From the NCBI GenBank assembly GCA_039587315.1, contig JBDHIS010000001.1, forward strand, positions 39 through 64,038: 64,000 nucleotides of DNA. The letters run 5' to 3'. This document shows positions 315 through 25,250 of the stretch, piece by piece. The DNA is from Gemmatimonadota bacterium (GTDB taxonomy: Bacteria > Gemmatimonadota > Gemmatimonadetes > Gemmatimonadales > GWC2-71-9). The position numbers and the translations under genes are program-made. Position 1 is the stretch's first letter; each line of letters opens with the position of its first letter. The notes beneath the pieces are model-generated. The model had not been told where the DNA came from, did no database searches, and worked only from the letters and a program-made list of their open reading frames with translations.

Positions 315-452
315 CACCCGTGATTGGGTATGCGGACCGCCGGGTGGCTCAGCGCTACCCGGCGGTCTCTTCTTACCCCGAACATTCCCCGTAAATCGTT
401 GACGCTGCCCGCGAAAGTCCCAAGAATTGTGAGATCCTCCCAGGGGGTACAC

Positions 453-836
453 ATGGCCACCATCCTGGTCATCGACGACGATGAGGTCAGCCGGCTCGCA
501 GTGGGATCCGCGCTCGAGGTGAACGGGCACGAGGTCCATTACGCACCCAACGGAGAGGTCGGGCTCGAGGTCTACGAAAAGTCGCCCACCGACGTGGTGA
601 TCATCGATCTGGCGATGCCCGTAATGAACGGGCTGCGCGCCATCCAGGAATTGCGCGAACGCCACAGGGACGTGCGCATCATCGCTATGTCGGGCGTGAG
701 CCCCGAGCAGCTCCCCCTCGCCGAGGAGTACGGAGCGCTCAGTTCCTTGACGAAGCCCGTGAACCCCACCGAGATGCAACAAGCGATCGACGACGTGCTG
801 CGGCGCTCGATGGGTTGGGAAGGCCCGATGGACTGA
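453..836 (+). CDS. single-domain response regulator (CheY-like receiver)
   Basis: ATG at 453 gives MATILVIDDDEVSRL... with acidic pocket DDD, phospho-acceptor context VVIIDLAMPVMNG, IIAMSG and LTKP. The listed ORF start at 324 adds a non-conserved Arg/Pro-rich leader. Confidence 0.85.
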   Translation: MATILVIDDDEVSRLAVGSALEVNGHEVHYAPNGEVGLEVYEKSPTDVVIIDLAMPVMNGLRAIQELRERHRDVRIIAMSGVSPEQLPLAEEYGALSSLTKPVNPTEMQQAIDDVLRRSMGWEGPMD

Positions 837-1133: not shown

Positions 1134-3134
1134 CTACTGGCAGAGGTTCCCGTTGTTGTACTGGTCCAGCGTGTAGGCCAGCTGGAGCGCCGTCTGGTAC
1201 TCGGCATCCTTCGGGCGCAGGTAGCTGCCGGTGCCGTCGAAGCCGATCGACATCAGCAGGTTCTCGGCATCGAGCGCGGCCTGCGCCGCGGCCGGGCAGG
1301 TCCCCGCACCCGCAGCGAAGTTCAGCTGCGCTGCCAGCAGGTGCATGGCAAGAGTGTACGCCGCGTCACTGGCCTTCTTCCTGCCGGTGTTGATGTCCCG
1401 CTGGTCGAGGATCGAGACGCCTTGCGCGCAGCCCAGAATCTGGAAGTCACCCCAGATGATCCCCGGCGAGGTCAGGATGTCGTCGAGCAGGTACCAGCCC
1501 TCGGCCGGGCCGCCGTTCTTGGTCGCGGTCTGGACCTGATTGCCGCTCGTACAGCGGTTCCAGTTCTTCCAGTAGCCGGGCGTGCGCGTATCGCCGCCGG
1601 GGAAGGTGTTGTTCACCTCGAACACCAGGGTCTGTCCGACCACGACCGAATACGCAGTGCCGGCACCGAACTCGAAGCAGAGGTTGCCCTCGTTCGCGGG
1701 CGGATTGTCGTCGGCGTTGGGGTTGTAAGGGATGATGTTCTGGTCGGCGACACCGTCGTTGTCAGTGTCCACCTTCCATTCGCTCGACCAGCCGGCCGGA
1801 ACGCCCAGCTCGCACACCGTGTAGCTCAAGTCGCCGCGCAGCGCCGGGTTCCCGAACTCCAGGACGCCGTCGAGGTCCCCGGACGTCGAGCTGGTTACGC
1901 CCACCTGGGTGCCGCCGAAACCGTCCGGACCTTCGTACAGGGCGAAGCTCCACTCCTTGCTTGCATCGACCACTCCCTCGGTCAGCTTGAGCAGGCTCAT
2001 GAAACCGGCTTCGCACGTGTAGGTGGTCGAGGCCGAAGACTGGTCTTCCTGGCCGTCATTGCCGGTCACGACGGCCGTGTTGTTCAGCGTGGCCGAGTAC
2101 GTACCGTCGGCGCCGTAATCGGCGGCGTCGACCGAGCAGGTGTGGCTCTGCGTCTCGGTCCAGGTCCACGGACCCTGGCCCGCAGTGAGCGTGAGCGGGA
2201 AATCGGGCTCCTGGTCGTCGTTTATGTCGGCGGTGCCGTTGAAGACGTTTTTGGTCCAGTCTATGTTGGCCTCCGCCGTGGCGCCGTCCACGTCGGGGTT
2301 CAGGCTGGTAACCGTGGCAGTGTTCTTCGTGGCCGTGGCATCACCGGGTGCGGCGGAGTACGTGCACTCTACCGAGCCGCCCGCCCCGAGCTCGTAGCTG
2401 GGGCAGCTGACCGTGGCCTCCGTACCGTCGCCGAGCACATCGGTTACCTCGAACGTGACGTCGAACGGCGTCGGGTTGCCAACCGTGATGGTCCCGCTCA
2501 CCGAGAAGTTCTCCTCGACGGAGCTCTCCGACAGGTCCACGGTCCAGGTCCAGGACAGCTCGTCGCCCGCGTAGCCCATCTGGGACTCGGGGTCCACCGA
2601 CTTCTCCACGTCCCACGTGTGGGTCTCGTCGTACTCGCCGGCGGCCTCCTTCTCAGCAGTGAGCTCGTAGTCGTAGCAGAACTCGATGTGGCTGATTGCG
2701 GACGGCTGGCCGGTGTTCGAGTTGATGGGTGAGTGCAGGGCGTCGTCGGTGGTCGCCTCGGGGGCGTAGGCGTACACGTTGGCGTTCGGGCCACCCTTCA
2801 CGATCACCGCGTCAAGGCTGAGCGTCGAAGTCCACTCGAAGTACGTCCCGTCGGAGGTGATGGTGACCGTCTCGCTGGTGCTCGGGAACGTGTAGCTCCC
2901 ACTGGGTGGCGGCTCCGGTTGCGGCTTGAAGCCGACGTCGTAACCGAGATCCGTGCAGGACGGGTTGCCCAGTACGACCTGTGGGACTACGTGCCGTAAC
3001 TGCGGCGTCGTGGGCGACCCTCCGTCATCCCGCGCTGGATTGGTCAGCTCCTGGGCTCCGTCGCCGCAGGCCCAGGCAAACACCAAGGCCAGGAGCGCGC
3101 CCGGCAACCACTGCCGTTTCTTCGAACGCCTCAT
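1134..3134 (-). CDS. large secreted lipoprotein of unknown function with repeated beta-sandwich-like modules
   Basis: ATG at 3134 is preceded by GGAGGA. The N-terminus MRRSKKRQWLPGALLALVFAWAC has a signal peptide and lipobox-like Cys. Repeated Thr/Gly/Asp-rich segments follow (e.g. TVGNPTPFDVTFEVTDVLGDGTEATVSCPSYELGAGGSVECTY). The C-terminal domain is Cys-containing and helical. Confidence 0.7.
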   Translation of the reverse strand: MRRSKKRQWLPGALLALVFAWACGDGAQELTNPARDDGGSPTTPQLRHVVPQVVLGNPSCTDLGYDVGFKPQPEPPPSGSYTFPSTSETVTITSDGTYFEWTSTLSLDAVIVKGGPNANVYAYAPEATTDDALHSPINSNTGQPSAISHIEFCYDYELTAEKEAAGEYDETHTWDVEKSVDPESQMGYAGDELSWTWTVDLSESSVEENFSVSGTITVGNPTPFDVTFEVTDVLGDGTEATVSCPSYELGAGGSVECTYSAAPGDATATKNTATVTSLNPDVDGATAEANIDWTKNVFNGTADINDDQEPDFPLTLTAGQGPWTWTETQSHTCSVDAADYGADGTYSATLNNTAVVTGNDGQEDQSSASTTYTCEAGFMSLLKLTEGVVDASKEWSFALYEGPDGFGGTQVGVTSSTSGDLDGVLEFGNPALRGDLSYTVCELGVPAGWSSEWKVDTDNDGVADQNIIPYNPNADDNPPANEGNLCFEFGAGTAYSVVVGQTLVFEVNNTFPGGDTRTPGYWKNWNRCTSGNQVQTATKNGGPAEGWYLLDDILTSPGIIWGDFQILGCAQGVSILDQRDINTGRKKASDAAYTLAMHLLAAQLNFAAGAGTCPAAAQAALDAENLLMSIGFDGTGSYLRPKDAEYQTALQLAYTLDQYNNGNLCQ

Positions 3135-3355
3135 AGTTCCTCCGTTAATGGGTGATAGATTCTGTCGGGTTTCGGGCGCGCAACAGGCTAACAGCAGGCC
3201 CCCACCTGCGCAAGGCCATCTGCTCCGGGGCACAGAGCGGCCTTCACGCCGACGCCCCTGGGGCGCCGACTGAGGCCGGGCGAATCCCTTAACCGCGTCA
3301 ATCATCATCCCCAGCTATTGTGGCGGGGCGATCCCCGATACAATTTGTTTAGATT

Positions 3356-6259
3356 GTGCGCTCCTCCCATCCCCGGCCCGATGAGGGCCTGGCCCGGCGG
3401 CTATCGGCCCTCCTGAGGCTCAGCGCCGAGATCGCCGCGGCCCTAGACGAACAGGAAATCTGTGACCGCGTCGTGCACGGCCTGCGCGACGAGTCGCTGG
3501 GGTACCACTTCGTGGGCCTGTTTCTGGTCGACGCAGCCACCGGCGACCGTGTCATGCGCGCCGCCGTGGGGTGGAAGGACACCTCGGCGGGATGGCGCGT
3601 GCCCAAGGGCGAGGGCCTGAGCGCGCGCGCCCTGAAGGACGGGCAGGTCCACTACACCCCGGACGTCACCAAGGAACCGCTCTACATACCGGGCCTCTCC
3701 ACCGGCTCGGAGGTGGACGTCCCCCTCATCATCGAGGGTGAGCCGGCCGGCGTCCTCGTCGTGGAGAGCGAACAGCCCGAGGCATTCGCCAAGGAGGACT
3801 TCGACATCCTCACTGCGGCGGCCACGCAGGCCAGCATCGCCATCGCGCGCGCCCGCCTCGTGGAGAGCCAGCGGCAGCTGCTTACCGCCGAGCGGCGGCG
3901 CGCCGACGAGCAGGAGGCACTGCTCGAGACCATGGCCGACCTCTCGGCGGAGCTCGAGCTGTCGAAGCTGCTCGAAGCGGTGCTGCGGCGCGCGGTCACC
4001 CTGCTGGGTGTGAGCGGCGGAGAGCTCGCCATCTACGATGAAGCGGCGCACGAGCTCGAGATCGTGGCCAATCACAACACCGAGCAGGTCTCGGTCGGCA
4101 CCCGTCTCGCGGTGGGAGAAGGCGCGATGGGGCACGTGGCCGAGACTCGCGAGCCGCTCATCATCTCGGACTACGCCCAGTGGTCGGGGCGGTCCGATCG
4201 TTACTCCACGGTCGAGGCGCACGCCGCCGTGGTGCTCCCGCTGGTGGTGGGCGGACGGCTGGTCGGCGCCATCGACTTCTGGCACGCCGATCGGGATCGC
4301 CAGTTCGGCCCCGAGGATGACCGCCTGCTCAACCTGTTCGCTACCCAGGCCGCGGTCGCCATCGAGAACGCACGGCTCTACACCACGGCACGACAGCAGC
4401 AGCAGTACTTCGCCGAACTCGTGCGCAACAGCCCCGTCGCCATCGTGGCCCTCGACCCCGCGCACAATGTCGTCTCGATCAACCCGGCGTTCGAGAAGCT
4501 GTACGGCTACACCGAGCGGGAGGTGATCGGCCAGAACCTGGACGACCTGATCACCACCGAACAGACCAGGGCGCAGGCGGTAGCGTACACCGAGGAAGCT
4601 TCGGATCACGCGGTCCACGGCATCGGGCAGCGCCGCCGCAAGGACGGCAGTATGGTGGACGTCGAAGTGCTGGCCGTTCCGGTAGACGTGGACGGCGAGC
4701 GCGTGGGGTTGATGGGCCTGTACCACGACGTCACCGAGCTGCTGCGCGCGCAGCAGGATGCCGAGGACGCCAACAGCGCCAAGAGCCAGTTCCTCGCGAA
4801 CATGAGCCACGAGCTGAGGACACCGCTCAACGCCATCATCGGCTACAGCGAGATGCTCCAGGAGGACGCCGAGGATGCCGGCCAACAGGGGTTCGTTCCC
4901 GATCTCGAGAAGATCCACTCGGCCGGCAAGCACCTGCTGGCGCTGATCAACGACATCCTCGACCTGTCGAAGATCGAGGCCGGCAAGATGGAGCTGTACT
5001 GCGAGGATTTCGAGGTCGAGCAGGTGGTGCGCGACGTTGCGACGACGGTGCGGCCGCTCGTCGAGAAGAACTCAAACCGCCTGGAGCTCGCATTCGGCGA
5101 CGGCCTGGGCACGATGAACTCCGACCTGACCCGCATCCGCCAGGTGCTGCTCAACCTCCTGTCCAACGCCTGCAAGTTCACGGAGGGCGGCACCATCACC
5201 CTGGAGGTGAGCCGCGGCGACATGATGCATTTCCGCGTCGCGGACACGGGAATCGGCATGACCGCAGAGCAGTTGGAGCGGCTGTTCGAGGCGTTCTCCC
5301 AGGCCGACATCACCACCGCCAGCAAGTACGGCGGCACTGGGCTGGGGCTGGCCATCAGCCGGCGCTTCTGTCAGATGATGGGCGGCGACGTTCAGGTCGA
5401 GAGCGATCCCGGCAAGGGATCGACGTTCACCGTGCGGCTCCCCGTGAGCGCGCCCAAGCCGGGAGAGCCCGAGCAGCTGGAGCTGGTGGGCGAGGGCGGC
5501 GACGGCCACGCCGGCACGGTGCTCGTCATCGACGACGACCCCGCGGTGCGCAACCTCATGGTGCGGTTCCTGGGCAAGGAGGGCTATCGCGTGCTGCCCG
5601 CCGCCGATGGCGAGACAGGGTTGCAGCTCGCCCGTGACGCGCGGCCCGACGTGATAACCCTCGACGTCATGATGCCGGGGATGGACGGGTGGGGAGTCCT
5701 CACGGCGCTCAAGGCAGACCCGGCGCTCGCGGACATTCCAGTCGTGATGCTCTCGATAGTCGAAGACAAGAACATGGGCTTCTCGCTGGGCGCTTCGGAG
5801 TACCTCACCAAGCCGATCGACCGCAGCAGGCTGACGGCGATTCTGGCCAAGTACGCGCGCGACGGACGCCAGGGATCGGTTCTCGTGGTCGAGGACGACG
5901 GCGCCACCAGGTCCATGCTCAAGCGATCGCTCGAAGGGAGCGGCTGGCACGTGACCGAGGCATCCAACGGACGCATCGCGCTGGAGCGTGTCGCGGAGGG
6001 GTGTCCCGACCTGGTGCTGCTCGATCTGATGATGCCCGAGATGGACGGCTTCGAGTTCCTGGAAGAGTTCCGCGACGGCGCCGGGTGTCAGGCCGTGCCC
6101 GTGGTCGTTCTCACCGCAATGGAGCTCACGGAGCAGGACCGGCGCCGTCTCAACGGCGGCGTGGAGCGGATCGTCCAGAAGAGTACGTACGGCCGTGAGC
6201 AGCTGTTGGCGGAGGTGCGCGAGCTCGTGTCCACGCGCACACCGGCGGTGAAGCCGTGA
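3356..6259 (+). CDS. cytoplasmic hybrid sensor histidine kinase (GAF-GAF-PAS-HisKA-HATPase-REC-REC)
   Basis: Motifs read: two GAF-like modules ending in AIAIARARL / [10 protein letters not shown]; PAS-like [11 protein letters not shown]...[14 protein letters not shown]; H-box [18 protein letters not shown]; N box [12 protein letters not shown]; DTGIGM; [12 protein letters not shown]. Two receivers follow (VLVIDDD...[10 protein letters not shown]...LTKP and VLVVEDD...[10 protein letters not shown]). No hydrophobic TM-length segment. Confidence 0.9.
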
Positions 6260-8775
6260 GCGGTCCGCATGGGGCGAGAAAGCACATGACCGGCGCCGAC
6301 GCGTCGCCGGCCAAGATGCGCTCCGCACTGCTCGGCCTCAGCACTCGCATCGCCGAGTCGCAGAACGAGACCGACGTATGTCGCGCAGTTGTCGAAGGGC
6401 TGTGCCGCGTCGAGTTCGGCTTCGATGGAGTGGGGCTCTTTCTGGCGGGTAGCGAGTCGTTCTCGCCCGCGCTCAGGGCCAGTGCCGGGAAGTTCGGCGC
6501 CGGAGACGGCCAGGTCTCCGAGCTGAAGCTGCCGCTCCAGGTGGGACAAAGCGCGATCGGCGAGCTCGTTGTGCAGCGCGAACGCTCGAGGGCGTTCGAC
6601 AAGGGCGATCTGGAGATCCTGGGAGCGGCCGCCAACCAGGCCAGCATAGCTATCGGGCGAGCCCGGTTGCTCGAGTCCGAGCGGGCGCGGATCACCGAAC
6701 AGCGGGCACTTCTCGACACGCTCGCTGACCTGTCCGGCGAACTGGAGCTGGACAAGCTCCTCCAGGCCGTGTTGGAGCGTGCGGTGTCTCTCCTCGGGGT
6801 CACTGGCGGCGAGCTCGCCGTGTTCGACGAGACGGCCGAGCAGCTCGTGATCGTTGCCAGCCACAATCTGGGAGAGGACTCCACCGGCGCGCACATGAAC
6901 CTCGGCGAGGGAGCGATGGGCCACGTCGCCCTCACTCACGAGCCGTTGATCATCCCCAACTACCAGGAGTGGGAGGGACGCTCTCCGCAGTACACGGACC
7001 ACACGGTGCAGACAGTGATGGTCGTGCCGCTCCTGATCGGCGCGAGGCTCGTGGGAGCCATTGCGAGCGTCCACTCGGACCCCTCTCGCAAGTTCGGCGA
7101 GGCTGACCTGCGCCTGCTGAACCTGTTCGCCGCCCAGGCCGCGATCGCGATCGAGAACGCCCGGTTGTTCGACGCCGAGCGGCGGCGCGCCGAAGAGCAG
7201 CGCGCGCTGCTCGACACGATGCAGGACCTCTCGGGTGAGCTGGAGCTCGCCAAGGTGCTTCAGCGAGTGCTGGAGCGCGCTGCCACGCTTCTCAACGTTA
7301 CCGGAGCTGAGGTGGCCACGTACGACGAGGCCGCGGAAGACCTCGTTATTTCCGCCAGCCACAGCATGGGCTGGGACGCCGTCGGAAATCGCATGGCCCT
7401 GGGGGAGGGCGCGATGGGTCAGGTGGCGCAGACCCACGAGCCCCTGATCATCCCCCGTTACCAGGAGTGGATCGGTCGCTCGTCCCAGTACACGCAGAGC
7501 ACCGTGCAGACCGTAATGGTGGCACCGCTACTGATCGGGACCAGGCTGGTGGGCGCCATCGCCGCCGTGCACTCCGATCCCGACCGGGAATTCGGCCCCG
7601 AGGATCTCGCACTGCTCCAGCTGTTCGCTCCCCAGGCCGCGATCGCGATCGAGAATGCTCGCCTCTTCTCCACCGCACAGCGGTACGTCGAAGACATAGT
7701 GCTCAACAACCCGGTCGCCATCGTGAAGCTGGACCTGGACGTGAACATCACCTCCTGCAACCCCGCGTTCGAGAGGTTGTTCGGGTATAGCGCGGACGAG
7801 GTGATCGGGCGGAACCTCGACGAGCTCGTCACGACCGAGGAGTCCCGGGCCGAGGCTGAAGCCTACTCGGAGCAAATGCTGGCCGGACGCCGGACCACCG
7901 GCGTCGGGCAGCGGCGCCGCAAGGACGGCTCGCTGATGGACGTTGAAGTGTTCTCGATCCCGGTCATCGTGGGCGGCGCGCGTGTAGGGATGATGGCCAT
8001 GTACCATGACATCACCGAGCTGCTCGACGCTCGTCGCGCCGCCGAAGAAGCCAGCCACTCCAAGAGCCGATTCCTCGCCAACACGAGCCACGAGCTCAGG
8101 ACCCCGCTCAACGCCATCATCGGCTACAGCGAGATGATGCTCGAGGACGCCGAGGATACCGGCGACGAGGAGTCCGCATCGGACCTCCAGAAGATCCGAG
8201 CCGCCGGACGACACCTGCTCTCGCTGATCAACGACATCCTCGACCTCTCCAAGATCGAGGCGGGGAGGATGGAGCTGGACCTGGAGACCTTTGGAGTGTG
8301 CGAGGCGATCAACGACGTTGCAACCACGGTGCACCCTCTGGTCGAGAAGAACGCCAACCGGCTCGAGATCGATTGCTCCAAGGACCTCGGTTCGATTCAT
8401 GCCGACGCGAAGCGCGTCAGGCAAGTGCTGCTGAACCTGGTGTCCAACGCGAGCAAGTTCACCGAGAAGGGCGCCATCAAGATCGACGCGGCCCGCGAGG
8501 GAAACGGTGCCCCGGACGGAGAGTGGCTGGTCCTGCGGGTGAGCGACTCGGGCATCGGGATGACGGCGGATCAGGTGGCGCGACTGTTTGAGCCGTTCTC
8601 ACAGGCCGACGCGGCGACGAGCACCAAGTACGGCGGCACCGGTCTGGGGCTGGCCATATCCCGACGACTGTGTCAGATGATGGGGGGAGACGTCACGGTA
8701 GAGAGCGAGAAGGGACAGGGCTCCACGTTCACCGTGCGCCTCCCCGCGGTCGTTTCCGAAAGGGGACTCCACTAG
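6256..8775 (+). CDS. cytoplasmic sensor histidine kinase (three GAF modules-PAS-HisKA-HATPase), paralog of the preceding gene
   Basis: GTG 6256 overlaps the upstream TGA (GTGA). H-box [18 protein letters not shown]; [12 protein letters not shown]; DSGIGM; [12 protein letters not shown]. No receiver and no TM segment. An ATG at 6286 is an alternative start. Confidence 0.88.
6679..7674 (+). repeat. in-frame tandem duplication of a 498-nt (166-codon) GAF module inside the second kinase
   Basis: Copy A is 6679-7176 and copy B is 7177-7674. Both run ER..(E)[16 protein letters not shown]..(L)..VLERA...[50 protein letters not shown]...[21 protein letters not shown]. The string gcgatcgcgatcgagaa recurs at 7141 and 7639, exactly 498 nt apart. 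Confidence 0.8.
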
Positions 8776-8777
8776 CA

Positions 8778-10907
8778 GTGCCTCGTTCCTCCACCGCACG
8801 CAAGAGCGCCGAGCCCGACAGGAGCGCCGCCGCCCACAGGCAGGCGGCGCTGCTGCGCCTCAGCACGGAGATCGCAGCCGCCCACGACGAGGAGGGGATC
8901 TACCGCTCCGTCGTGCACGGCCTCCACGACGAGGCCCTCGGATACAACTTCCTCGGCGTGTTCCTACTGGATCCCGAGTCGGGCGACCGCGTGCTCCAAG
9001 CGAGCATGGGTTGGCCCGATGTGCCGGACGCCTGGCGGGTGCACCGCGGGGAAGGTCTCAGCGAGCAGGCATTGCTGGACGGCGAGCTGCACTACACCGC
9101 CGACGTGACCCGTGAATCCCGCTACCTCCCCAGCCTGGCCAGTGGCTCCGAGGTGGACGTCCCCTTGAGGGTGGACGGCACGACGATCGGCGTCCTGGTC
9201 GTCGAAAGCGCCGAACCGAATGCGTTCGGCGGCGAGGACTTCGAGATCCTCAATGCAGCCGCCAACCAGGCGAGCATCGCGGTGGGCCGGGCCAGGCTCC
9301 TGGCGTCCGAGCGGCGTCGCGCCGACGAGCACAAGGCTCTGCTCGACACGATGGCCGATCTCTCGGCCGAGCTGGAGCTGTCGCGCGTGCTGCAGGCCGT
9401 GCTGGTGCGGGCGGTGAGCCTGCTTGGGGTGACGGGCGGAGAGGTCGCGATATGGGAGGAGGAGGCGCAGGAGCTCGTCGTGCTAGCGAGCCAGAACATC
9501 GGCAAGGACTCCACGGGCACGCGACTCAAGCCGGGCGAGGGAGCAATGGGAACCGTAGCCCGGACCCAGGAGCCGATCATCATCCCGTCGTACGCAGAGT
9601 GGCTGGGCCGCTCGACCAAGTACTCGGATCTGACGATTCACTCCGTGATGGCGGCGCCGCTCCTGATCGGGCGACGGCTGGTGGGTGCCATCGCCACGAT
9701 TCACGCGGATCCGGAACGCGAGTTCGGCCCCGAGGACATGCGGCTGCTCAACCTGTTCGCGCCGCAGGCGGCGATCGCGATCGAGAACGCACGCCTCTAC
9801 ACGGAGGCGCAGCGCCAGAAGCAGTACTTCGAGGAGCTGCTCCAGAACAGTCCGGTAGCCATCGTCACGCTGGACCGCGATTACAGCATCGTCAGCTGCA
9901 ATCCCAACTTCGAGAGCCTGTTCGGCTACTCGAGCGACGAGGCGGTGGGTCGGAATCTGGACGAGCTGATCACCACCGAGGCCACTCGCACCGAGGCCGA
10001 GCAGTACACTCGCGAGGCACTGGATCGCGCGGTCCACGGAATCGGCCGGCGGCAACGCAAGGACGGGACGTTGGTGGACGTGGAGGTGCTGGGAGTTCCG
10101 GTGATCGTTGACGGCGAGCGCGTGGGACTCATGGGCCTGTACCACGACATAACCGAGTTGCTCCGGGCGCGTCAGGAGGCGGAAGCAGCCAACAGCGCCA
10201 AGAGCCAGTTCCTGGCCAGCATGAGCCACGAGCTCCGGACACCGCTCAACGCAATCATCGGCTACAGCGAGATGCTGCAGGAGGAGGCGGAGGATCTGGG
10301 GCACGCTGAGTTCGGCGGGGATTTGCAGAAGATCCACACCGCCGGCCGGCACCTGCTGTCACTGATCAACAACGTGCTGGATCTGTCCAAGATCGAGGCG
10401 GGCCGGATGGAGCTCTATCTCGAGGACTTCGACGCGAGCACGATGATCGATGACGTGGTGACGACCGTGCGCCCGCTGGTGGACAAGAACTCCAACAGTC
10501 TCGAAGTCGAGCAGGCCGACGATCTGGGAAGCATGCACGCCGACTTGACCAAGGTGCGGCAGATGCTGCTCAATCTGTTGTCCAACGCCTGCAAGTTCAC
10601 CGAGGGCGGAGCGATTACGCTCGCGGCAGAGCGCGGGAAGGACAACGGGAGGGAGATCATCACGTTCTCCGTCAGAGACACCGGCATCGGGATGACCCCG
10701 GAGCAGATGGAGCGGCTGTTCGAGGCGTTCTCCCAGGCCGAGGCTTCCACGACCAGCAAATACGGTGGGACGGGGCTCGGGCTCGCGATCACGCGCAGGT
10801 TCACGAACATGATGGGTGGAGATGTGCAGGTAGTCAGTGCGCCCGGTGAGGGCTCGACATTCACAATTCGTTTGCCGGCGGCGGTCGAGGCCGCGCCGGC
10901 TACGTAG
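8778..10907 (+). CDS. cytoplasmic sensor histidine kinase (GAF-GAF-PAS-HisKA-HATPase), third paralog
   Basis: GTG 8778 lies 2 nt after the upstream TAG (8773-8775). The ORF-track start at 8670 would overlap the upstream gene by 106 nt and adds an Arg/Gly-rich non-homologous leader. H-box [18 protein letters not shown]; [12 protein letters not shown]; DTGIGM; [12 protein letters not shown]. Confidence 0.85.
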
Positions 10908-10919
10908 AGGGGGAGCGCG

Positions 10920-11291
10920 ATGGCCAGGATCCTCTTGGTCGAGGACAACGAAATGAACCGCGACATGTTGTCGCGGCGACTCGAGCGCAAGGGATTCGAG
11001 ATCACCATGGCCGTGGATGGGCGGGAAGGGGTCGAGATGGCCAAGGCGGGCGACTACGACCTCATTCTCATGGACATGAGCCTGCCTGAGATCGACGGCT
11101 GGGAGGCAACGCGGCAGCTGCGCGCAGCGCCCGACACCGAGCGCACGCCGATCATCGCTCTCACGGCGCACGCCATGGCAGGTGATCGGGAAAGGGCGCT
11201 CGAGGCCGGTTGCGACGACTACGACACGAAGCCGATCGAGCTGGATCGTCTGCTGTCCAAGATCAACGCCCTGCTGGAGAAGAACACGTGA
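10920..11291 (+). CDS. stand-alone response regulator receiver (CheY-like)
   Basis: GGGGGAG precedes the ATG. MARILLVEDNEMNR...LILMDMSLPEIDGWE...IIALTAHAM...YDTKPI gives a complete receiver motif set with no output domain. Confidence 0.9.
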   Translation: MARILLVEDNEMNRDMLSRRLERKGFEITMAVDGREGVEMAKAGDYDLILMDMSLPEIDGWEATRQLRAAPDTERTPIIALTAHAMAGDRERALEAGCDDYDTKPIELDRLLSKINALLEKNT

Positions 11292-13210
11292 GCGCTGGTT
11301 CCGATCCCGGTGCACAGCTCTCCCGTGACGCGGTCAGCGAGCTGCGACACGAGCTGCGCACACCGGTCAATCACATAATGGGCTACGCCGAGATGTTGCT
11401 CGAGGATCTCGGCCCCGACCCGACCGAGCGCCGAACCGCACTCGAGGAGGCAGTCGGCGCCGCGCGAGACGTGCTCTCGCTGGTCAGCGTCTCGCTCCCA
11501 TCCGGCCGAACTGAGGTCGCGGAGGGTGAGGTCGCAGCACTGTACGAGTCACTGCGCGAGCCGCAGCAACGCATCTTCCAGGCGCTCACACCCCTGGTAG
11601 GGGACGGCACCGACGCGGGAGACGAGTTCGTCGCGGATCTCAAGAGGATCCTGAACGCCGCCGAGCGGTTGGTGAGCGCACCGGCGCCGACACCGGCCAA
11701 GAAGAATGAAGCGGTGGCAGCGCCGAGCGACGCCGAGGACGCCCAGGCGCGGATTCTCGTCGTGGACGACGTCGAGGACAACCGCGAAGTGCTGCGCCGG
11801 CGGCTCCAACGCGAGGGTTACACCGCCGATTGCGCAGAAGACGGTCACGCCGCACTCGAGATGATTGGCGAGAAGCCCTACGACCTGGTTCTACTCGACA
11901 TGCTGATGCCGGGCATCGACGGATACGAGGTCCTGGGACGCCTCAAGGACTCTCCGGCCACGCGGGACATTCCCGTGATCATGATCTCCGCACTCGACGA
12001 GCTCGACAAGATCGCGAGCTGCATCGAGCGGGGCGCGGAGGACTATCTCCCCAAACCCTTCGATCCAGTGTTGCTGCGGGCCCGCATCACCGCGTGTCTC
12101 GACAAGAAGCGGCTGCGCGACAAGGAGGTCGAGTACCTGAGGCAGGTGGGACGGGTGATCGAGGCCGCCACGGCTGTCGAGACCGGCGGTTACGAGTCGG
12201 AGACGCTGGCCGAGGTGGCGGGCCGGAGCGACGAGCTGGGGCGGCTCGCGCGTGTGTTCGACGGCATGGCGGCCGAGGTGCGCTCGCGCGAGGAGAGACT
12301 GCGCCGCCAGATCGAGGACCTCAAGACGGAGGTTTCGGCGGCGCGTGGCGCCAAGCGCCCCAGTGGCGCGGAGCTCGACTTCGCCAGCCTCGGCACCGGA
12401 AAGCGGTTCGCCGGCCGCTACGAGGTTCAGGAGACCGTGGGTGCCGGCGCGATGGGGATGGTCTATCGCACCAAGGATCTCGAGCTGGACGAGGAGGTCG
12501 CCATCAAGACAGTGAAGCCCGAGCTCGTGGTGGACGATACCGCGGTCGAGCGGTTCAAGGACGAGATCCGGCTGGCCCGCAAGATCTCGCATCGGAACGT
12601 CGTCCGCACGCACGACTTCGGCGAGTGGCAGGGCGTCTACTACCTCACGATGGAGTACGTCGAGGGCGTCACGGTGCGGGACCTGCTCGACACCCGCGAG
12701 CAGCTCGGCGTGTCGCCCACGATGGCCATCGCGACGCAGCTGGCCGCGGCCCTGGCCGTGGCGCACGAACAGGGAGTCATCCACCGCGACATCAAGCCAC
12801 AGAACCTCCTGCTGGACTCCGACGGCGTGCTCAAGGTGATGGACTTCGGCGTCGCGCGGCTGGCAGAGCGAACCAGCAGCATCACTGAGACCGGACTGGT
12901 CGTCGGGACGCCCGCGTACATGTCTCCGGAACAGCTGCTGACCGACGCCGATCTCGACCCGCGCAGCGACCTGTGGGCGGTCGGCGTGGTGCTCTACGAG
13001 TGTCTCACCGGCAAGCTGCCGTTCACGGCCGCCACACCGGTCGCGCTGATCGCCAAGGTGCTGAACGAGGAGCCTCCCACACCCGCCGAACTCAACCCGG
13101 AGGTGCCCGAGACGCTCTCGGCCCTGGTGCTCGAGCTCCTGGCCAAGCGCCGCGAGGACCGTCCAGGATCGGCGCGGGAACTCGAGGAGCGGCTCGGCCG
13201 GCTCGCGTAG
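11288..13210 (+). CDS. multidomain signalling protein: ATPase-less H-box (HisKA-like) domain, receiver, HAMP-like/coiled-coil linker, Hanks-type Ser/Thr protein kinase
   Basis: GTG 11288 overlaps the receiver's TGA (GTGA). H-box SELRHELRTPVNHIMGYAEML has its His codon at 11348-11350, and no N/G1/G2 ATP-lid boxes follow. Receiver: RILVVDDVEDN...LVLLDMLMPGIDG (Asp codon 11897-11899)...IMISA...YLPKP. Linker: DELGRLARVFDGMAAEV. Kinase: GAGAMGMVY, VAIKTV, HRDIKPQN (12782-), DFG (12842-), GTPAYMSPE. Confidence 0.85.
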   Translation: MSAGSDPGAQLSRDAVSELRHELRTPVNHIMGYAEMLLEDLGPDPTERRTALEEAVGAARDVLSLVSVSLPSGRTEVAEGEVAALYESLREPQQRIFQALTPLVGDGTDAGDEFVADLKRILNAAERLVSAPAPTPAKKNEAVAAPSDAEDAQARILVVDDVEDNREVLRRRLQREGYTADCAEDGHAALEMIGEKPYDLVLLDMLMPGIDGYEVLGRLKDSPATRDIPVIMISALDELDKIASCIERGAEDYLPKPFDPVLLRARITACLDKKRLRDKEVEYLRQVGRVIEAATAVETGGYESETLAEVAGRSDELGRLARVFDGMAAEVRSREERLRRQIEDLKTEVSAARGAKRPSGAELDFASLGTGKRFAGRYEVQETVGAGAMGMVYRTKDLELDEEVAIKTVKPELVVDDTAVERFKDEIRLARKISHRNVVRTHDFGEWQGVYYLTMEYVEGVTVRDLLDTREQLGVSPTMAIATQLAAALAVAHEQGVIHRDIKPQNLLLDSDGVLKVMDFGVARLAERTSSITETGLVVGTPAYMSPEQLLTDADLDPRSDLWAVGVVLYECLTGKLPFTAATPVALIAKVLNEEPPTPAELNPEVPETLSALVLELLAKRREDRPGSARELEERLGRLA

Positions 13211-13234: not shown

Positions 13235-13265
13235 GGCCCCGGCCACCACTTGGGTGGCCGGGGCC
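13235..13265. terminator. bidirectional terminator hairpin between convergent genes
   Basis: GGCCCCGGCCACC-ACTTG-GGTGGCCGGGGCC is a perfect 13-bp stem. AAAA lies on its 5' side, which reads as a T-tract for the minus-strand gene. Confidence 0.6.
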
Positions 13266-13286: not shown

Positions 13287-13949
13287 CTACTGCAGGATCG
13301 CTACCGGATACGTGAAGCCGGCCGAGAACATCCAGCTGCGGCCCTTGACGGTTTCCCCCGGAGAGTCCACCGCCACGTTGGTTAGACCCAGGTCGTACAG
13401 AACGTCCAGGAAGACGGTCGCGGGCCCCGCGTTGATCCCGAGCCCGCCACCGAACATCAGACTCCACAGGGTCTTCTTGCGATCGGCGTCTATTAGCGGG
13501 TCGTCGCAGTCGAACGAAGCCTCGACTCCACCCTGGGTCCCTGAAACGGTGCACCCGGCCTCGAAGGCGACAGCGGGACCTCCCATGATCCGGATCGCCA
13601 CCGAGGAGCCCACCGGTAACTTGCCCTTGGCCATGAGCGGCACCTGTATGTACGCCGCGTTGAAATTGGCATCGACGCCCGGCTCGATGGAATTGAACCC
13701 CTGCTGCGTGTACAGACCGTCGATCTCGATCCCGAAGAACTCGTGCAGATCCAGAGCCACCACCAAGCCGGCGTGGAACCCTGTCTTCGAGTTGATCTCC
13801 TCGGGCGGCGGCGGGTTCCAGCTCACCGTGGACAGGTTGAGGCCGCCCCTCAGCCCGAGGCCGATCGACTTCGACTGCGCCTCGGCGGAGTTGGCGAAAA
13901 GCGCCCCCACAGCCACCATGGCGAGCGCGGCGAGTACTTGCTTCCTCAT
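13287..13949 (-). CDS. outer-membrane beta-barrel protein (OmpA-like barrel/porin family)
   Basis: ATG 13949 gives signal peptide MRKQVLAALAMVAVGALFANSAEAQ. Alternating hydrophobic strands follow, and the C-terminus is aromatic (FSAGFTYPVAILQ). Confidence 0.7.
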   Translation of the reverse strand: MRKQVLAALAMVAVGALFANSAEAQSKSIGLGLRGGLNLSTVSWNPPPPEEINSKTGFHAGLVVALDLHEFFGIEIDGLYTQQGFNSIEPGVDANFNAAYIQVPLMAKGKLPVGSSVAIRIMGGPAVAFEAGCTVSGTQGGVEASFDCDDPLIDADRKKTLWSLMFGGGLGINAGPATVFLDVLYDLGLTNVAVDSPGETVKGRSWMFSAGFTYPVAILQ

Positions 13950-13987
13950 GGTCCCCCCCTTCCCTGCGTAATGCTGCTCTTTCGTGC

Positions 13988-14437
13988 CTATTGCCGCGCC
14001 TCGGGGCGCACCTGCCACAGCACGTTGACGATCTTCCACTCGCCGTTCCATAGCGCGAGGTGCATGTAGTCGATCCAGTCGCTCGCGTCCACACGCGCTG
14101 AGGCGGTCCCCTCGTAGATGTCGAGGATCGTCACATCGGTGCGCACCTGGTCCCGCGGAGTGCGCGTTCCATACCCCGCAGCCGTTGCCTGAACCAGCTG
14201 CTCCGCGGTCATGTCTCGCATCCCCGTGTCGCCGGTCTCCGGATTGACGCCCACGATGCGCTTGGCCAGCTCAGGATGAAGCGCCCGCTCCATGCGCGCG
14301 GCGTCGCCGGCATACCACCCCTCGATGTAGTCCAGGGCCGCCTGCCGGACGCCGGCCGAATCGGCAGCCGTTTGGGCTTCGCCGGCCGCGGAAAGCCCAA
14401 TCGCTGCCGCCGCGACCAGAATCATTATCCTCTTCAC
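13988..14437 (-). CDS. secreted NTF2-like (SnoaL/lumazine-binding-like) protein
   Basis: Signal peptide MKRIMILVAAAAIGLSAAGEAQ. AALDYIEGWYAGDAARMERALHPEL...WKIVNVLW is the pattern of NTF2-fold putative lumazine-binding family proteins. Confidence 0.6.
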   Translation of the reverse strand: MKRIMILVAAAAIGLSAAGEAQTAADSAGVRQAALDYIEGWYAGDAARMERALHPELAKRIVGVNPETGDTGMRDMTAEQLVQATAAGYGTRTPRDQVRTDVTILDIYEGTASARVDASDWIDYMHLALWNGEWKIVNVLWQVRPEARQ

Positions 14438-22992: not shown

Positions 22993-23439
22993 ATGGAAGT
23001 GATCCTCAGAAAGACGATAGATAACGTCGGCGAGGCCGGCGAGATCGTGAAGGTGAAGGACGGCTACGCGCGGAATTTCCTGATCCCGCGCGGGCTCGCT
23101 TATCAGGCTACCGAAGACAACCGGCGGCGCGCCGAGGCCGAGGCAGCCCGCCGCGCCGGCAAAGTGGCCTCCGACCGGGCTGACGCCGAGGCACTGGCGA
23201 CGCGGCTGGAAAGTCTAGAACTTCATTTCAATGCCAAGGCGGGCGAGGGCGACAAGCTGTTCGGCTCCATCACCTCCGGTGACATCGCCGAGCAGGTGGG
23301 CGCCCAGGGGTTCACGCTCGACAAGCGGGTGATCGAGCTCGAAGAGCCGATCAAGATGATCGGTATCTACAAGGTGCCGGTCCGTCTGCATCCCGAGGTC
23401 CGGACCGAGCTCAGGGTCTGGGTCGTGAAAGAAGAGTGA
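22993..23439 (+). CDS. rplI: 50S ribosomal protein L9
   Basis: MEVILRKTIDNVGEAGEIVKVKDGYARNFLIPRGLA. Confidence 0.92.
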   Translation: MEVILRKTIDNVGEAGEIVKVKDGYARNFLIPRGLAYQATEDNRRRAEAEAARRAGKVASDRADAEALATRLESLELHFNAKAGEGDKLFGSITSGDIAEQVGAQGFTLDKRVIELEEPIKMIGIYKVPVRLHPEVRTELRVWVVKEE

Positions 23440-25250
23440 CAGCGACAGCAACCGGCATTACCTACCTCGACGGCCCGCGCCTTAGGCGGGTCCTCCTCGC
23501 GGCAGCCGATTGGGTGGACGCGGGGCGGGAAGAGTTGAATCGCATCAACGTCTTCCCAGTGCCCGACGGCGACACCGGCACGAACTTCACGATGACGTTC
23601 CGCGCGGCGGCCGAGGGCGTGCGGGCCCTGAATGGCGATGCCAACCTGCCCGACGTCACCCACGCGATGGCCGAGGCCTGCGTGTTCGGTGCGCGCGGCA
23701 ACTCCGGCATGCTCCTCTCCCAATTCCTGCTCGGCTTCCGCGAGTCCCTGGGGAATCTCAAGACGGCCGGAGCGAGGGACGTCGCCCTCGCGATGCGGTG
23801 CGGCGCCGATCATCTGTACCGCTCCCTGGACGATCCGGTGGAGGGGACGATCCTCACCGTCTCACGCGAAGTGGCCGACGCCGCCGAGTGGTCCGCCGGG
23901 CGCACACACAACCTCCAGGAGATGATGCGGCACGTGATGCGGCGCGCCGAGGTCTCCCTCAGGCGCACGCCCGAGCTTCTGGCGGTGCTCAGGGAGGCCG
24001 GCGTCGTGGACGCCGGCGCCAAGGCGTTCGTGCGCGTGCTCGAGGGGTGCGTCCGGGTCATCGAGGGCGACCCGATCCTCGCGGCCACTGAACCGGTTCA
24101 GTTCACGGTGCCCGACGCAGCGGCCATGGCCGCAGTAGCCGCCGACCAGGATTACGGCTACTGCACCGAGGCCCTGGTCAGAGGAGCGGGGTTCCCGCCG
24201 AGCACCGAGATCCGCGCCGCGCTTAGGAAGCTGGGTGGCTCGATCGTGGTGCTGGCCACCGAGGATCTCCTCAAGGTTCACATACACACGGACACGCCGC
24301 AGGCGGTGTTCGACCTCGCCGAGTCGTGGGGCACGATCCAGACCACCAAGGCCGACGACATGCGCGAGCAGCACCGCGAGCTGCACGAGGCGCACCGGCG
24401 CATCAGCGTGGTGGTCGATTCTTCCTGTGACCTGCCGGACGACCTTGTGGACGCCCACGGAATGGTGGTCGTGCCGCTGCAGGTGATAGCCGGGAACGAG
24501 ACGTTCCAGGACCGGCTGGAGATCCGGGGCGAGGAGCTGTACGACCGCATGCGCGAGAACGGTGAGATCTTCACGACCTCGCAGCCCCCTCCCGGTGCGT
24601 TCGTGCGTGCGTTCGAGGACGCCCTGTCCAGCTCGGACGAGGTGATCGCTCTGTTCGTGGCGAGCGCGCTTTCCGGTACTCTGGCTTCGGCCGAGGCAGC
24701 CGCCCGAGCACGCGACCAGAGCGACTCGGTGACGATCGTGGATTCGCGATCCGCTTCGTACGGCCTGGGCATGCTGGCGCTGAAGGCGGCGGAACTGGTC
24801 GAGGCAGGGTGGGAGCTCCCCGCCATCCACAAGGAGCTGGAGCGGGTACGCAACCAATCCGGCGCGCTGTTCACGGTGGACATCTTCGACAACCTGCTGC
24901 GCTCCGGCCGCGTGAGCCGCGGCCGCGCCTGGCTCGGAGGCCTGCTCGACATCAAGCCCATCCTGGAGGTGAACCAGGAAGGCCGCGTAGTGCCGCTGGA
25001 CCGCGTTCGCGGCCGTGAGGCCCTGGTGCCGCGCGTGATGTCGCACCTGGAGCGGAGGCTCACGCCGAGGCCCGAGTCGCTCAGGATCGCCGTAGCGCAC
25101 GCCGGAGTGCCCGAGCTGGCCGCGAGCATCCGCGACGAGGTGGTGCAGCGCTTCAACCCGCGCGAGTGCTTTGTGAGCCCGGTGACCGCCGCCCTCGGCG
25201 TCCACACCGGCCCCGGCGCCTGGGGCATCTTCTACCAGGTCGAGGATTGA
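23436..25250 (+). CDS. Dak2 (FakA-like) domain fused to a DegV/FakB-like fatty-acid-binding domain
   Basis: N-terminal part: FPVPDGDTGTNF, GARGNSGMLLSQF, GVVDAGAKAF, YGYCTEALV...KVHIHTDTP (FakA/YloV-like). C-terminal part: ISVVVDSSCDLPDD...TTSQPPPGAFVRAFE...SGTLASAE...LLDIKPIL (DegV-like). GTGA overlap with rplI. Confidence 0.82.
   Translation: MTATATGITYLDGPRLRRVLLAAADWVDAGREELNRINVFPVPDGDTGTNFTMTFRAAAEGVRALNGDANLPDVTHAMAEACVFGARGNSGMLLSQFLLGFRESLGNLKTAGARDVALAMRCGADHLYRSLDDPVEGTILTVSREVADAAEWSAGRTHNLQEMMRHVMRRAEVSLRRTPELLAVLREAGVVDAGAKAFVRVLEGCVRVIEGDPILAATEPVQFTVPDAAAMAAVAADQDYGYCTEALVRGAGFPPSTEIRAALRKLGGSIVVLATEDLLKVHIHTDTPQAVFDLAESWGTIQTTKADDMREQHRELHEAHRRISVVVDSSCDLPDDLVDAHGMVVVPLQVIAGNETFQDRLEIRGEELYDRMRENGEIFTTSQPPPGAFVRAFEDALSSSDEVIALFVASALSGTLASAEAAARARDQSDSVTIVDSRSASYGLGMLALKAAELVEAGWELPAIHKELERVRNQSGALFTVDIFDNLLRSGRVSRGRAWLGGLLDIKPILEVNQEGRVVPLDRVRGREALVPRVMSHLERRLTPRPESLRIAVAHAGVPELAASIRDEVVQRFNPRECFVSPVTAALGVHTGPGAWGIFYQVED

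Follow-up and report, generated by a model that had tools for sequence, protein, structure and literature searches.

The window analyzed here is a 64,000-nucleotide stretch from a Gemmatimonadota bacterium (GenBank assembly GCA_039587315.1, contig JBDHIS010000001.1, positions 39 to 64,038). On its plus strand, at 3356–13210, lies a block of five genes that probably encodes a cytoplasmic, multistep His-Asp-His-Asp relay ending in a HAMP-switched, PknB-like Ser/Thr kinase. The genes specify three histidine kinases (HK1, HK2 and HK3), a single-domain receiver (REC4) and a fusion protein (STK5). In STK5, a histidine-bearing region of the dimerization and histidine phosphotransfer (DHp) type is followed by a receiver, HAMP-like helices and a Hanks-type Ser/Thr kinase. 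Comparison with related loci showed that the block exemplifies a conserved cassette, the constant core of which is the receiver gene together with the fusion gene.

Conservation of the cassette

Loci around relatives of the block, drawn from metagenomes and a species-level genome collection, were annotated with profiles derived from the domains of the window itself. Loci L033–L080, which came from a kinase-motif genome scan and contain mostly unrelated Ser/Thr kinases, were left out. The recurring order was GAF/PAS histidine kinase, single-domain receiver and a fusion of HisKA (without an ATPase domain), REC, HAMP and Pkinase. Of the 26 loci with usable upstream sequence, 25 had a single-domain receiver gene as the direct upstream neighbor of the DHp-REC-HAMP-Pkinase gene, and the five-gene arrangement described in the initial annotation thus recurs in relatives as far as its receiver–fusion core is concerned. 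The three GAF/PAS kinase inputs named there are present in this genome but are not a fixed number, as between one and at least four paralogues stand ahead of the receiver in relatives, mixing hybrid (REC-REC) and non-hybrid forms.

The H-box histidine of the fusion protein was similarly persistent. Among the fetched loci, 66 of 67 proteins in which DHp and receiver precede any output (DHp-REC-X) retained at least one His-bearing H-box. The N-terminal domain was degenerate and devoid of the H-box histidine in L119 and L014, and L108 had no DHp domain at all; none of these three loci has an upstream receiver gene. The receiver gene is missing from exactly the loci whose H-box histidine or N-terminal domain has gone, which supports a relay as far as sequence can. 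REC4 was the most conserved protein of the cassette, with 67–86% identity between loci compared to 54–61% for the kinase-fusion protein, as would fit a hub obliged to suit several partners.

One locus departs from this layout. In L010 (7766–12253), the REC4 homologue shares a stop-to-stop open reading frame (ORF) with the kinase upstream of it, and the kinase-fusion gene is spread over two frames. This arrangement probably reflects indel errors in a long-read metagenome-assembled genome and not a true fusion.

Architecture of the STK5 fusion protein

STK5 (640 aa; 11288–13210, plus strand) matched Pfam HisKA (1e-10) without HATPase, followed by Response_reg (4e-29), HAMP (8e-5, just under the cut-off) and Pkinase (1e-54). 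More than 120 clusters of full-length homologues at 59% identity or above share HisKA, Response_reg and Pkinase, and the named ones all belong to Gemmatimonadota. Residue invariance in STK5 was judged on an alignment of 20 homologues with 60–76% identity. The database gene call of STK5 (P0001) is 610 aa long and starts at Met31 inside the H-box, 30 codons late. As the stretch of 30 residues ahead of Met31 is conserved, with R20, H21, L23, R24, T25, P26, N28 and H29 invariant, we take the true start to be GTG 11288. The start at Met31 removes the H-box, which explains why the precomputed domain list of P0001 does not include HisKA.

The N-terminal domain (residues 10–130; 11315–11677, plus strand) is a putative phosphotransfer domain. 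It carries a HisKA match with a histidine, H21, and no ATPase domain, and so has the form of a second relay histidine (H2) without kinase activity. The domain is composed of two DHp-like hairpins. Hairpin 1 contains H21 (codon 11348–11350) within LRHELRTPVNHI, and this residue is invariant. Hairpin 2 repeats the DHp pattern in degenerate form (YESLREPQQRI), with Glu replacing His. In hhalign, residues 76–131 align in register with two partners, residues 10–72 of the same protein (P 1e-4) and the HisKA domains of HK1–3 (P 6e-6). Apart from this second half, nothing in the operon looks degenerate. Helix alpha1 of the STK5 DHp region, RHELRTPVNHIMGYAEMLLED, is nearly identical to alpha1 of HK1–3, which fits docking of one receiver on both. 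We also considered pairing receivers with DHp domains through their specificity residues; this was dropped, as the alpha1 helices are too alike to discriminate.

AlphaFold2 (AF2) modeling of the N-terminal domain from a 34-sequence alignment predicted helices at 13–40, 46–69, 79–104 and 112–126 (pLDDT 83, pTM 0.74), and the full-length model showed the same four helices followed by a disordered 20-residue linker. The second DHp-like hairpin and this linker fill the space before the receiver, leaving no room for a domain resembling the catalytic and ATP-binding (CA) domain. STK5 thus does not have the Spo0B/ChpT-type organization, in which a DHp domain with a degenerate CA-like domain forms a homodimeric bundle. 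From the model, the two DHp hairpins in one chain would replace the homodimeric bundle, giving a single-chain His-phosphotransfer domain. Such a domain, judged by its sequence, may work like a histidine phosphotransfer (HPt) protein without being a member of the Hpt family.

Distant relatives display the same design in less eroded form. These have two full HisKA repeats ahead of the receiver, with the H-box histidine often in both and sometimes in the first or the second only; whenever one repeat degenerates, the other always retains its histidine. Some relatives contain two or three DHp pairs in tandem, approximately 150–195 aa apart. We tentatively propose, at somewhat less than even confidence, that the STK5-type N-terminal domain is an unrecognized class of His-phosphotransfer domain derived from hybrid-kinase DHp, and that together with its receiver it forms a portable relay adaptor linking cytoplasmic kinase arrays to any effector under receiver control.

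The most extended members of the wider family are P0162 (906 aa), P0199 and P0175, with six, four and three HisKA-like stretches, respectively, ahead of one receiver. P0162 has three His-bearing H-boxes spaced by approximately 175 aa, and P0199 and P0175 have two each, approximately 150 and 195 aa apart, respectively. This spacing suggests repeated units of a His-bearing and a His-less hairpin.

The receiver of STK5 (11750–12103, plus strand) contains D160, D161, D204 (codon 11897–11899), S234 and K256, placed by alignment to CheY and all invariant. Located ahead of HAMP-like helices and Pkinase, it is arranged as a terminal receiver (D2) joined to an effector. In the AF2 model, receiver helix alpha5 continues into a 39-residue helix (260–298); a connector leads on to a 37-residue helix (316–352) with DELGRLARVFDGM, a motif that we take to be typical of the second HAMP helix. 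This HAMP-like helix-connector-helix is encoded at 12104–12343 (plus strand).

The C-terminal kinase domain (12419–13195, plus strand) is PknB-like, with E 7e-54 to PknB structures in a PDB sequence search. The motifs of a Hanks-type kinase are present from the G-loop through the APE-type motif: GAGAMG, K407, E426, HRD 499–501, N506, DFG 519–521 and TPAYMSPE. K407, E426, HRD, K503, N506, DFG and most of TPAYMSPE are invariant. PDB sequence searches returned no chain uniting REC and Pkinase.

Proteins matching the HAMP and kinase half of STK5 at 42–50% identity were also found in Gemmatimonadales and Acidobacteriota (L012–L024; for example, L013 8756–11065 and L021 8819–11053). In these, a transmembrane (TM) segment, a periplasmic domain of approximately 300 aa and a second TM segment precede HAMP and Pkinase. 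They look like a family of membrane-receptor Ser/Thr kinases employing HAMP.

The stand-alone receiver and the sensor kinases

REC4 (123 aa; 10920–11291, plus strand) consists of Response_reg only (6e-29), with E8, D9, D52, T82 and K104 placed by alignment to CheY and Spo0F. Its best NCBIfam match, below the NCBIfam cut-off, was the receiver domain of BarA. With a phosphorylatable-type Asp and no output domain, REC4 has the composition of an intermediate receiver (D1). On sequence grounds, we infer that it is a hybrid-kinase-type receiver and propose D52 as the phospho-acceptor.

The three kinases carry the SHELRTP H-box together with N, G1 and G2 motifs, and their HATPase_c matches are near full length (E ~1e-30, Pfam), as expected for the first histidine (H1) of a phosphorelay. 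HK1 (3356–6259, plus strand) is a cytoplasmic hybrid histidine kinase with the order GAF-GAF-PAS-HisKA(H485)-HATPase_c-REC(D770)-REC(D890). Alignment to CheY and Spo0F showed an intact acidic pocket, Asp, Thr/Ser and Lys in both of its receivers. HK2 (6256–8775, plus strand; GAFx3-PAS-HisKA(H612)-HATPase_c) and HK3 (8778–10907, plus strand; GAFx2-PAS-HisKA(H484)-HATPase_c) are cytoplasmic as well; HK1 is the only hybrid, as two Response_reg domains follow HATPase_c there and none do in HK2 and HK3. HK2 shares 55–58% identity with HK1 and HK3. Homologues of HK3 align from residue 1–2 of the 8778 start. The transmitters of HK1–3 were nearest to the TorS, BarA, ArcB, LuxQ and RcsC types of NCBIfam, although no NCBIfam family reached its cut-off for any of the five proteins. 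TorS, BarA, ArcB, LuxQ and RcsC are kinases that feed phosphorelays.

The initial annotation, made from the sequence and its ORFs, had named the domains of all five proteins, seen no TM-length hydrophobic segment in the kinases and noted the absence of DNA-binding, cyclase and c-di-GMP output domains from the block. Pfam recovered each of the named domains and returned none of the DNA-binding, cyclase or GGDEF/EAL type. A hydrophobicity scan found no TM-like segment, the top hydrophobic 19-mers all falling within GAF domains; a membrane-bound system was rejected on this ground.

Interchangeable outputs of the DHp-REC unit

The Ser/Thr kinase is one of several effectors attached to the DHp-REC unit, a second histidine kinase (HisKA-HATPase) being another. 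What follows the receiver in metagenomic loci is an adenylate/guanylate cyclase, a SpoIIE-type PP2C phosphatase, a ParA/MinD-like ATPase, PAS-HATPase or HAMP alone. Such DHp-REC-X genes, with outputs other than the kinase, have a stand-alone receiver gene as their immediate upstream neighbor in 26 of 31 loci, and in two further loci of the 31 the receiver of a hybrid kinase holds the upstream position. An exhaustive search of 1.84 billion representatives gave 7,232 at E 1e-30 or better. The representative ranking was dominated by multi-receiver proteins and was therefore filtered by architecture, which yielded 57 DHp-REC-X clusters among the best 150. These 57 and four receiver-fused relatives, 61 proteins together, were scanned for Pfam outputs: HATPase_c was present in 20, SpoIIE in six, Guanylate_cyc in four, Pkinase in three and HD, HATPase_c_2 and Hpt in one each; the rest had no recognized output. 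The initial annotation had placed Ser/Thr phosphorylation at the end of the pathway. This agrees with Pkinase standing in cis with the receiver of STK5, but in the wider family it is one output among several.

In other relatives, a receiver, one or two DHp repeats and a second receiver are combined in single proteins (P0125, P0153, P0157 and P0168; L115 12553–14376), some of which then continue into a histidine kinase. Here, the stand-alone receiver appears to have been fused to the relay module. The interchangeable outputs, and the placement of the HAMP and kinase half behind membrane sensors, are what would be expected if the receiver controls its effector through HAMP-like helices.

Proposed relay and rival readings

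In the proposed relay, each of HK1–3 would sense an intracellular ligand or state and autophosphorylate its H-box histidine, as the intact motifs suggest. The phosphoryl group would pass to Asp52 of REC4, and HK1 may also use its own two receivers. From phosphorylated REC4 it would be transferred to His21 of the STK5 tandem-DHp domain, acting as HPt or Spo0B would, and then to Asp204, either within the same STK5 chain or across to the receiver of a dimer partner. Phosphorylation of this receiver would reach the PknB-like kinase via helix alpha5 and the HAMP-like helix-connector-helix, and probably alter kinase dimerization and activation-loop autophosphorylation, by analogy with PknB and PknD. 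The kinase would then phosphorylate substrates encoded outside the cassette. A His-Asp-His-Asp relay had already been suggested in the initial annotation; comparative genomics speaks in its favor through the receiver–fusion adjacency, the invariant His and Asp residues and the joint loss of components.

Shorter schemes were also considered. In the main rival, a two-step system, HK1–3 would phosphorylate D204 directly, with REC4 serving as a phosphate sink or allosteric modulator, as for CheY-type sinks and LovR, and the STK5 DHp region serving as a dimerization module and/or a phosphatase for REC4 or its own receiver. The near-identical alpha1 helices would let the kinases dock on either receiver, and the STK5 H-box retains HELRT, an E/D-x-x-T phosphatase motif; HisKA-only proteins have indeed been proposed as phosphatases (PMC5847659). 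The stand-alone receiver also persists where all kinases are hybrids. What makes this scheme unlikely is the histidine itself, retained nearly throughout the family though no ATPase domain needs it, and always kept by one DHp repeat when the other degenerates. The REC-DHp-DHp-REC fusions and the hybrid-kinase-type character of REC4 likewise suit a conduit better than a sink. The joint loss of receiver gene and H-box is explained by both schemes alike and does not discriminate between them. A different shortcut would have the ATPase domains of HK1–3 act on His21 in trans, in the manner of CheA P4 acting on the HPt-like P1 domain or through heteromeric DHp packing, with His21 feeding D204 and REC4 forming a side branch. 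The mimicry of the kinases' own H-box helix by STK5 alpha1, and the predicted independent four-helix bundle on a flexible 20-residue linker, would accommodate such a reaction. It nevertheless gives no role to the near-universal adjacent receiver gene or to its loss together with the histidine, and we know of no HisKA-type kinase that phosphorylates the DHp domain of another protein; we regard it as very doubtful.

The direction of flow was also considered. STK5 could stand upstream and phosphorylate the histidine kinases or receivers on Ser/Thr, its own receiver only tuning this activity. Phosphorylation of response regulators and histidine kinases by eukaryotic-like Ser/Thr kinases is documented (review PMC12189002), and with no substrate gene conserved nearby, the cassette proteins become candidate substrates. 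As an account of the cassette, such reverse or feedback flow is very unlikely, although it would be compatible with the relay: the REC-HAMP-kinase order and the swapping of effectors in that position mark the kinase as an output, as does the placement of the HAMP and kinase half behind membrane sensors in relatives. That the genes are functionally independent and merely co-located, the arrangement having arisen by duplication of paralogous kinases, is extremely improbable. Kinase number and type do vary between genomes, but the order of kinase(s), receiver and fusion is kept in all but one of the informative loci at 54–61% identity for the fusion protein, start and stop codons overlap, and components are lost together.

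Several points weigh against the relay or its parts. The reading rests wholly on sequence and gene order. The near-identical alpha1 would equally let HK1–3 phosphorylate the STK5 receiver directly. In L086 and L097, all upstream kinases are hybrids, yet a stand-alone receiver is present, so viewing REC4 just as a receiver split off to serve non-hybrid kinases would be too simple. For the N-terminal domain, Pfam returned HisKA and no match to Hpt (PF01627), and Foldseek of the model against the PDB gave no significant match (E at least 0.08), so that no structural family could be assigned; the best of these non-significant matches were all monomeric up-down four-helix bundles. The four-helix bundle itself comes from a monomer prediction, and a domain-swapped dimer is possible. 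The HAMP score of STK5, 23.3 bits, falls just below the Pfam cut-off of 25 bits; relatives exceed it with 28.7 and 25.1 bits, and PF00672 is listed for P0004, P0044 and P0050. No conserved gene downstream of the kinase-fusion gene, such as a substrate, PP2C or FHA gene, was found in 24 loci. Finally, a promoter scan of 3135–3355, ahead of HK1, gave no sigma-70 consensus match; as no promoter was detected and the terminator beyond STK5 is oriented for the other strand, co-transcription is deduced from the gene overlaps alone.

Operon layout and flanking genes

The ORF listing of the window places the five plus-strand frames at 3356–6259, 6256–8775, 8670/8778–10907, 10920–11291 and 11210/11288–13210. 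HK1 and HK2 overlap in GTGA at 6256, and REC4 and STK5 overlap in GTGA at 11288. HK2 and HK3 are joined at 8775/8778 by TAG-ca-GTG with a 2-nt gap, and HK3 and REC4 are separated by 12 nt with a Shine-Dalgarno-like GAGGGGGAG ahead of ATG 10920. G+C at third codon positions (GC3) in the five frames was 0.85–0.90, matching the expectation for real genes at the 66% G+C of the window. The junctions bear out the tight joining of five same-strand genes reported in the initial annotation, with its overlaps and short gaps; the gap ahead of the fourth gene is 12 nt, not 13. A terminator scan detected no internal terminator of note in the operon.

The hairpin at 13235–13265, which the initial annotation took to close the block, is real (13 bp, G+C-rich). 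AAAA stands before it and GATGCGATC after it on the plus strand, and the T-run lies on the minus strand. The hairpin is therefore primarily the terminator of the convergent outer membrane protein (OMP) beta-barrel gene at 13287–14051 (minus strand; OMP_b-brl_2, 2e-16). It does not have the form of a typical terminator for the operon, for which it may be at best a weak or bidirectional stop.

Upstream, a putative divergent promoter region (3135–3355) probably separates HK1 from a minus-strand, lipoprotein-like gene. The corresponding ORF (1134–3308, minus strand, 724 codons) is gene-like with GC3 of 0.86 but matched nothing in Pfam or NCBIfam; a lipoprotein-type signal, MRRSKKRQWLPGALLALVFAWAC, comes after an internal Met near 3134. 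The gene diverging from the operon thus probably starts near 3134 and encodes a secreted lipoprotein, and this start leaves approximately 220 bp for divergent promoters. Another stand-alone receiver gene is located at 324–836 (plus strand; Response_reg 1.7e-22), with approximately 45 additional residues at the N terminus; 2.5 kb and the minus-strand gene separate it from the operon downstream. The minus-strand ORF 129–848 that overlaps it has an atypical GC3 of 0.64 and is probably spurious. The remaining genes of the window are housekeeping genes, including Prs, L25, H+-PPase, YchF and SMC. ORF 23436–25250 (plus strand) combines Dak2, the FakA middle domain and DegV and looks like a fusion of both fatty-acid kinase subunits.

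Discussion

Two-component and Hanks-type phosphorylation are usually viewed as separate bacterial systems that merely cross-talk. If the relay is true, the cassette would be the first case in bacteria of a Hanks-type kinase being switched in cis by a His-Asp relay. His/Asp and Ser/Thr signaling would be hard-wired in one conserved operon and in one polypeptide, with the catalytic residues intact. The cassette offers a directly testable system for the switching of a PknB-like kinase by receiver phosphorylation through a HAMP helix. With the tandem-DHp domain, evolution may have arrived at a His-phosphotransfer module by a second route. Gemmatimonadota are a widespread soil phylum with few cultured members, and the cassette, conserved over many of their genomes and over metagenome contigs, would provide an entry point into their signaling. 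The combination of a receiver gene with DHp-REC-X can further serve as an annotation rule for proteins labeled only 'response regulator' or 'protein kinase'; the late gene call of P0001 at Met31 illustrates how the architecture of STK5 is otherwise hidden.

A phosphorelay with a receiver-controlled enzyme is a known category, and the architecture is already present in hundreds of poorly annotated database sequences. Literature searches found no characterized fusion of a receiver to a Hanks kinase and no description of tandem HisKA, although censuses may list the bare architecture. The statement in the initial annotation that no characterized pathway with this wiring is known to its author agrees with these searches, which found none; the close analogs are Spo0, HptB-HsbR and Sln1-Ypd1-Ssk1-Ssk2.

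In the Spo0 phosphorelay of Bacillus subtilis, the kinases KinA–E act through Spo0F, Spo0B and Spo0A, and KinA is cytoplasmic with PAS domains. The operon resembles it in the predicted sequence of several kinases, a single-domain receiver, a kinase-inactive histidine of a DHp-type bundle and a terminal receiver, with REC4 in the place of the intermediate receiver Spo0F (PMC9981736). The two differ in that Spo0B forms a homodimer of its own and has an ATPase-like domain in degenerate form, whereas the His domain of STK5 is predicted to be single-chain and is fused to the receiver; the output of STK5 is a Hanks kinase and that of Spo0A a DNA-binding domain. In the HOG (high-osmolarity glycerol) pathway of yeast, the terminal receiver of the Sln1-Ypd1-Ssk1 relay controls the Hanks-type kinases Ssk2/Ssk22. 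The likeness is a His-Asp-His-Asp relay whose last receiver controls a Hanks-type kinase. The HOG pathway, however, is eukaryotic and receives its input from a single membrane kinase, its H2 is an HPt protein, and Ssk1 binds the mitogen-activated protein kinase kinase kinase in trans.

Among bacterial systems, the HptB pathway of P. aeruginosa (PA1611, ErcS' and SagS to HptB, then HsbR/PA3346 and HsbA) shares the use of multiple hybrid kinases that converge on a His protein and on a receiver whose effector sets the Ser-phosphorylation of a target (PMC12189002). It employs a classical HPt protein and a PP2C phosphatase with a GHKL anti-sigma-type Ser kinase, unfused, in contrast to the Hanks kinase and fused H2-D2 of the operon. 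ChpT, in the Caulobacter pathway from CckA to CtrA/CpdR, is a DHp-based phosphotransferase (PMC3433190), and MrrA, the hub acting with PhyT and LovK, is a single-domain receiver that takes phosphate from several kinases and returns it to a DHp histidine (PMC5964349). Unlike STK5, ChpT and PhyT keep the ATPase-like domain and are dimers, and their outputs are transcription or partner switching, with no Ser/Thr kinase fusion.

Hanks kinases and two-component domains, including GAF, also meet within one signaling unit in the cyanobacterial HstK dual kinases (Pkinase-GAF-HisKA-HATPase; PMC2176072). There, the Ser/Thr kinase comes first, at the N terminus, and a complete histidine kinase follows, with no receiver between and no ATPase-less DHp; in STK5, the kinase is C-terminal, HisKA stands without HATPase and REC lies between. 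The kinase domain of STK5 is a clear homologue of PknB with all catalytic motifs, but PknB-type kinases sit in the membrane as receptors and sense through PASTA or other extracellular domains, whereas the input of STK5 would be a phosphorylated receiver acting via the HAMP-like linker. The operon as predicted thus differs from Spo0, HptB-HsbR and Sln1-Ypd1-Ssk1-Ssk2 in its fused H2 and D2, the tandem-DHp nature of its H2 and a Hanks kinase attached in cis.

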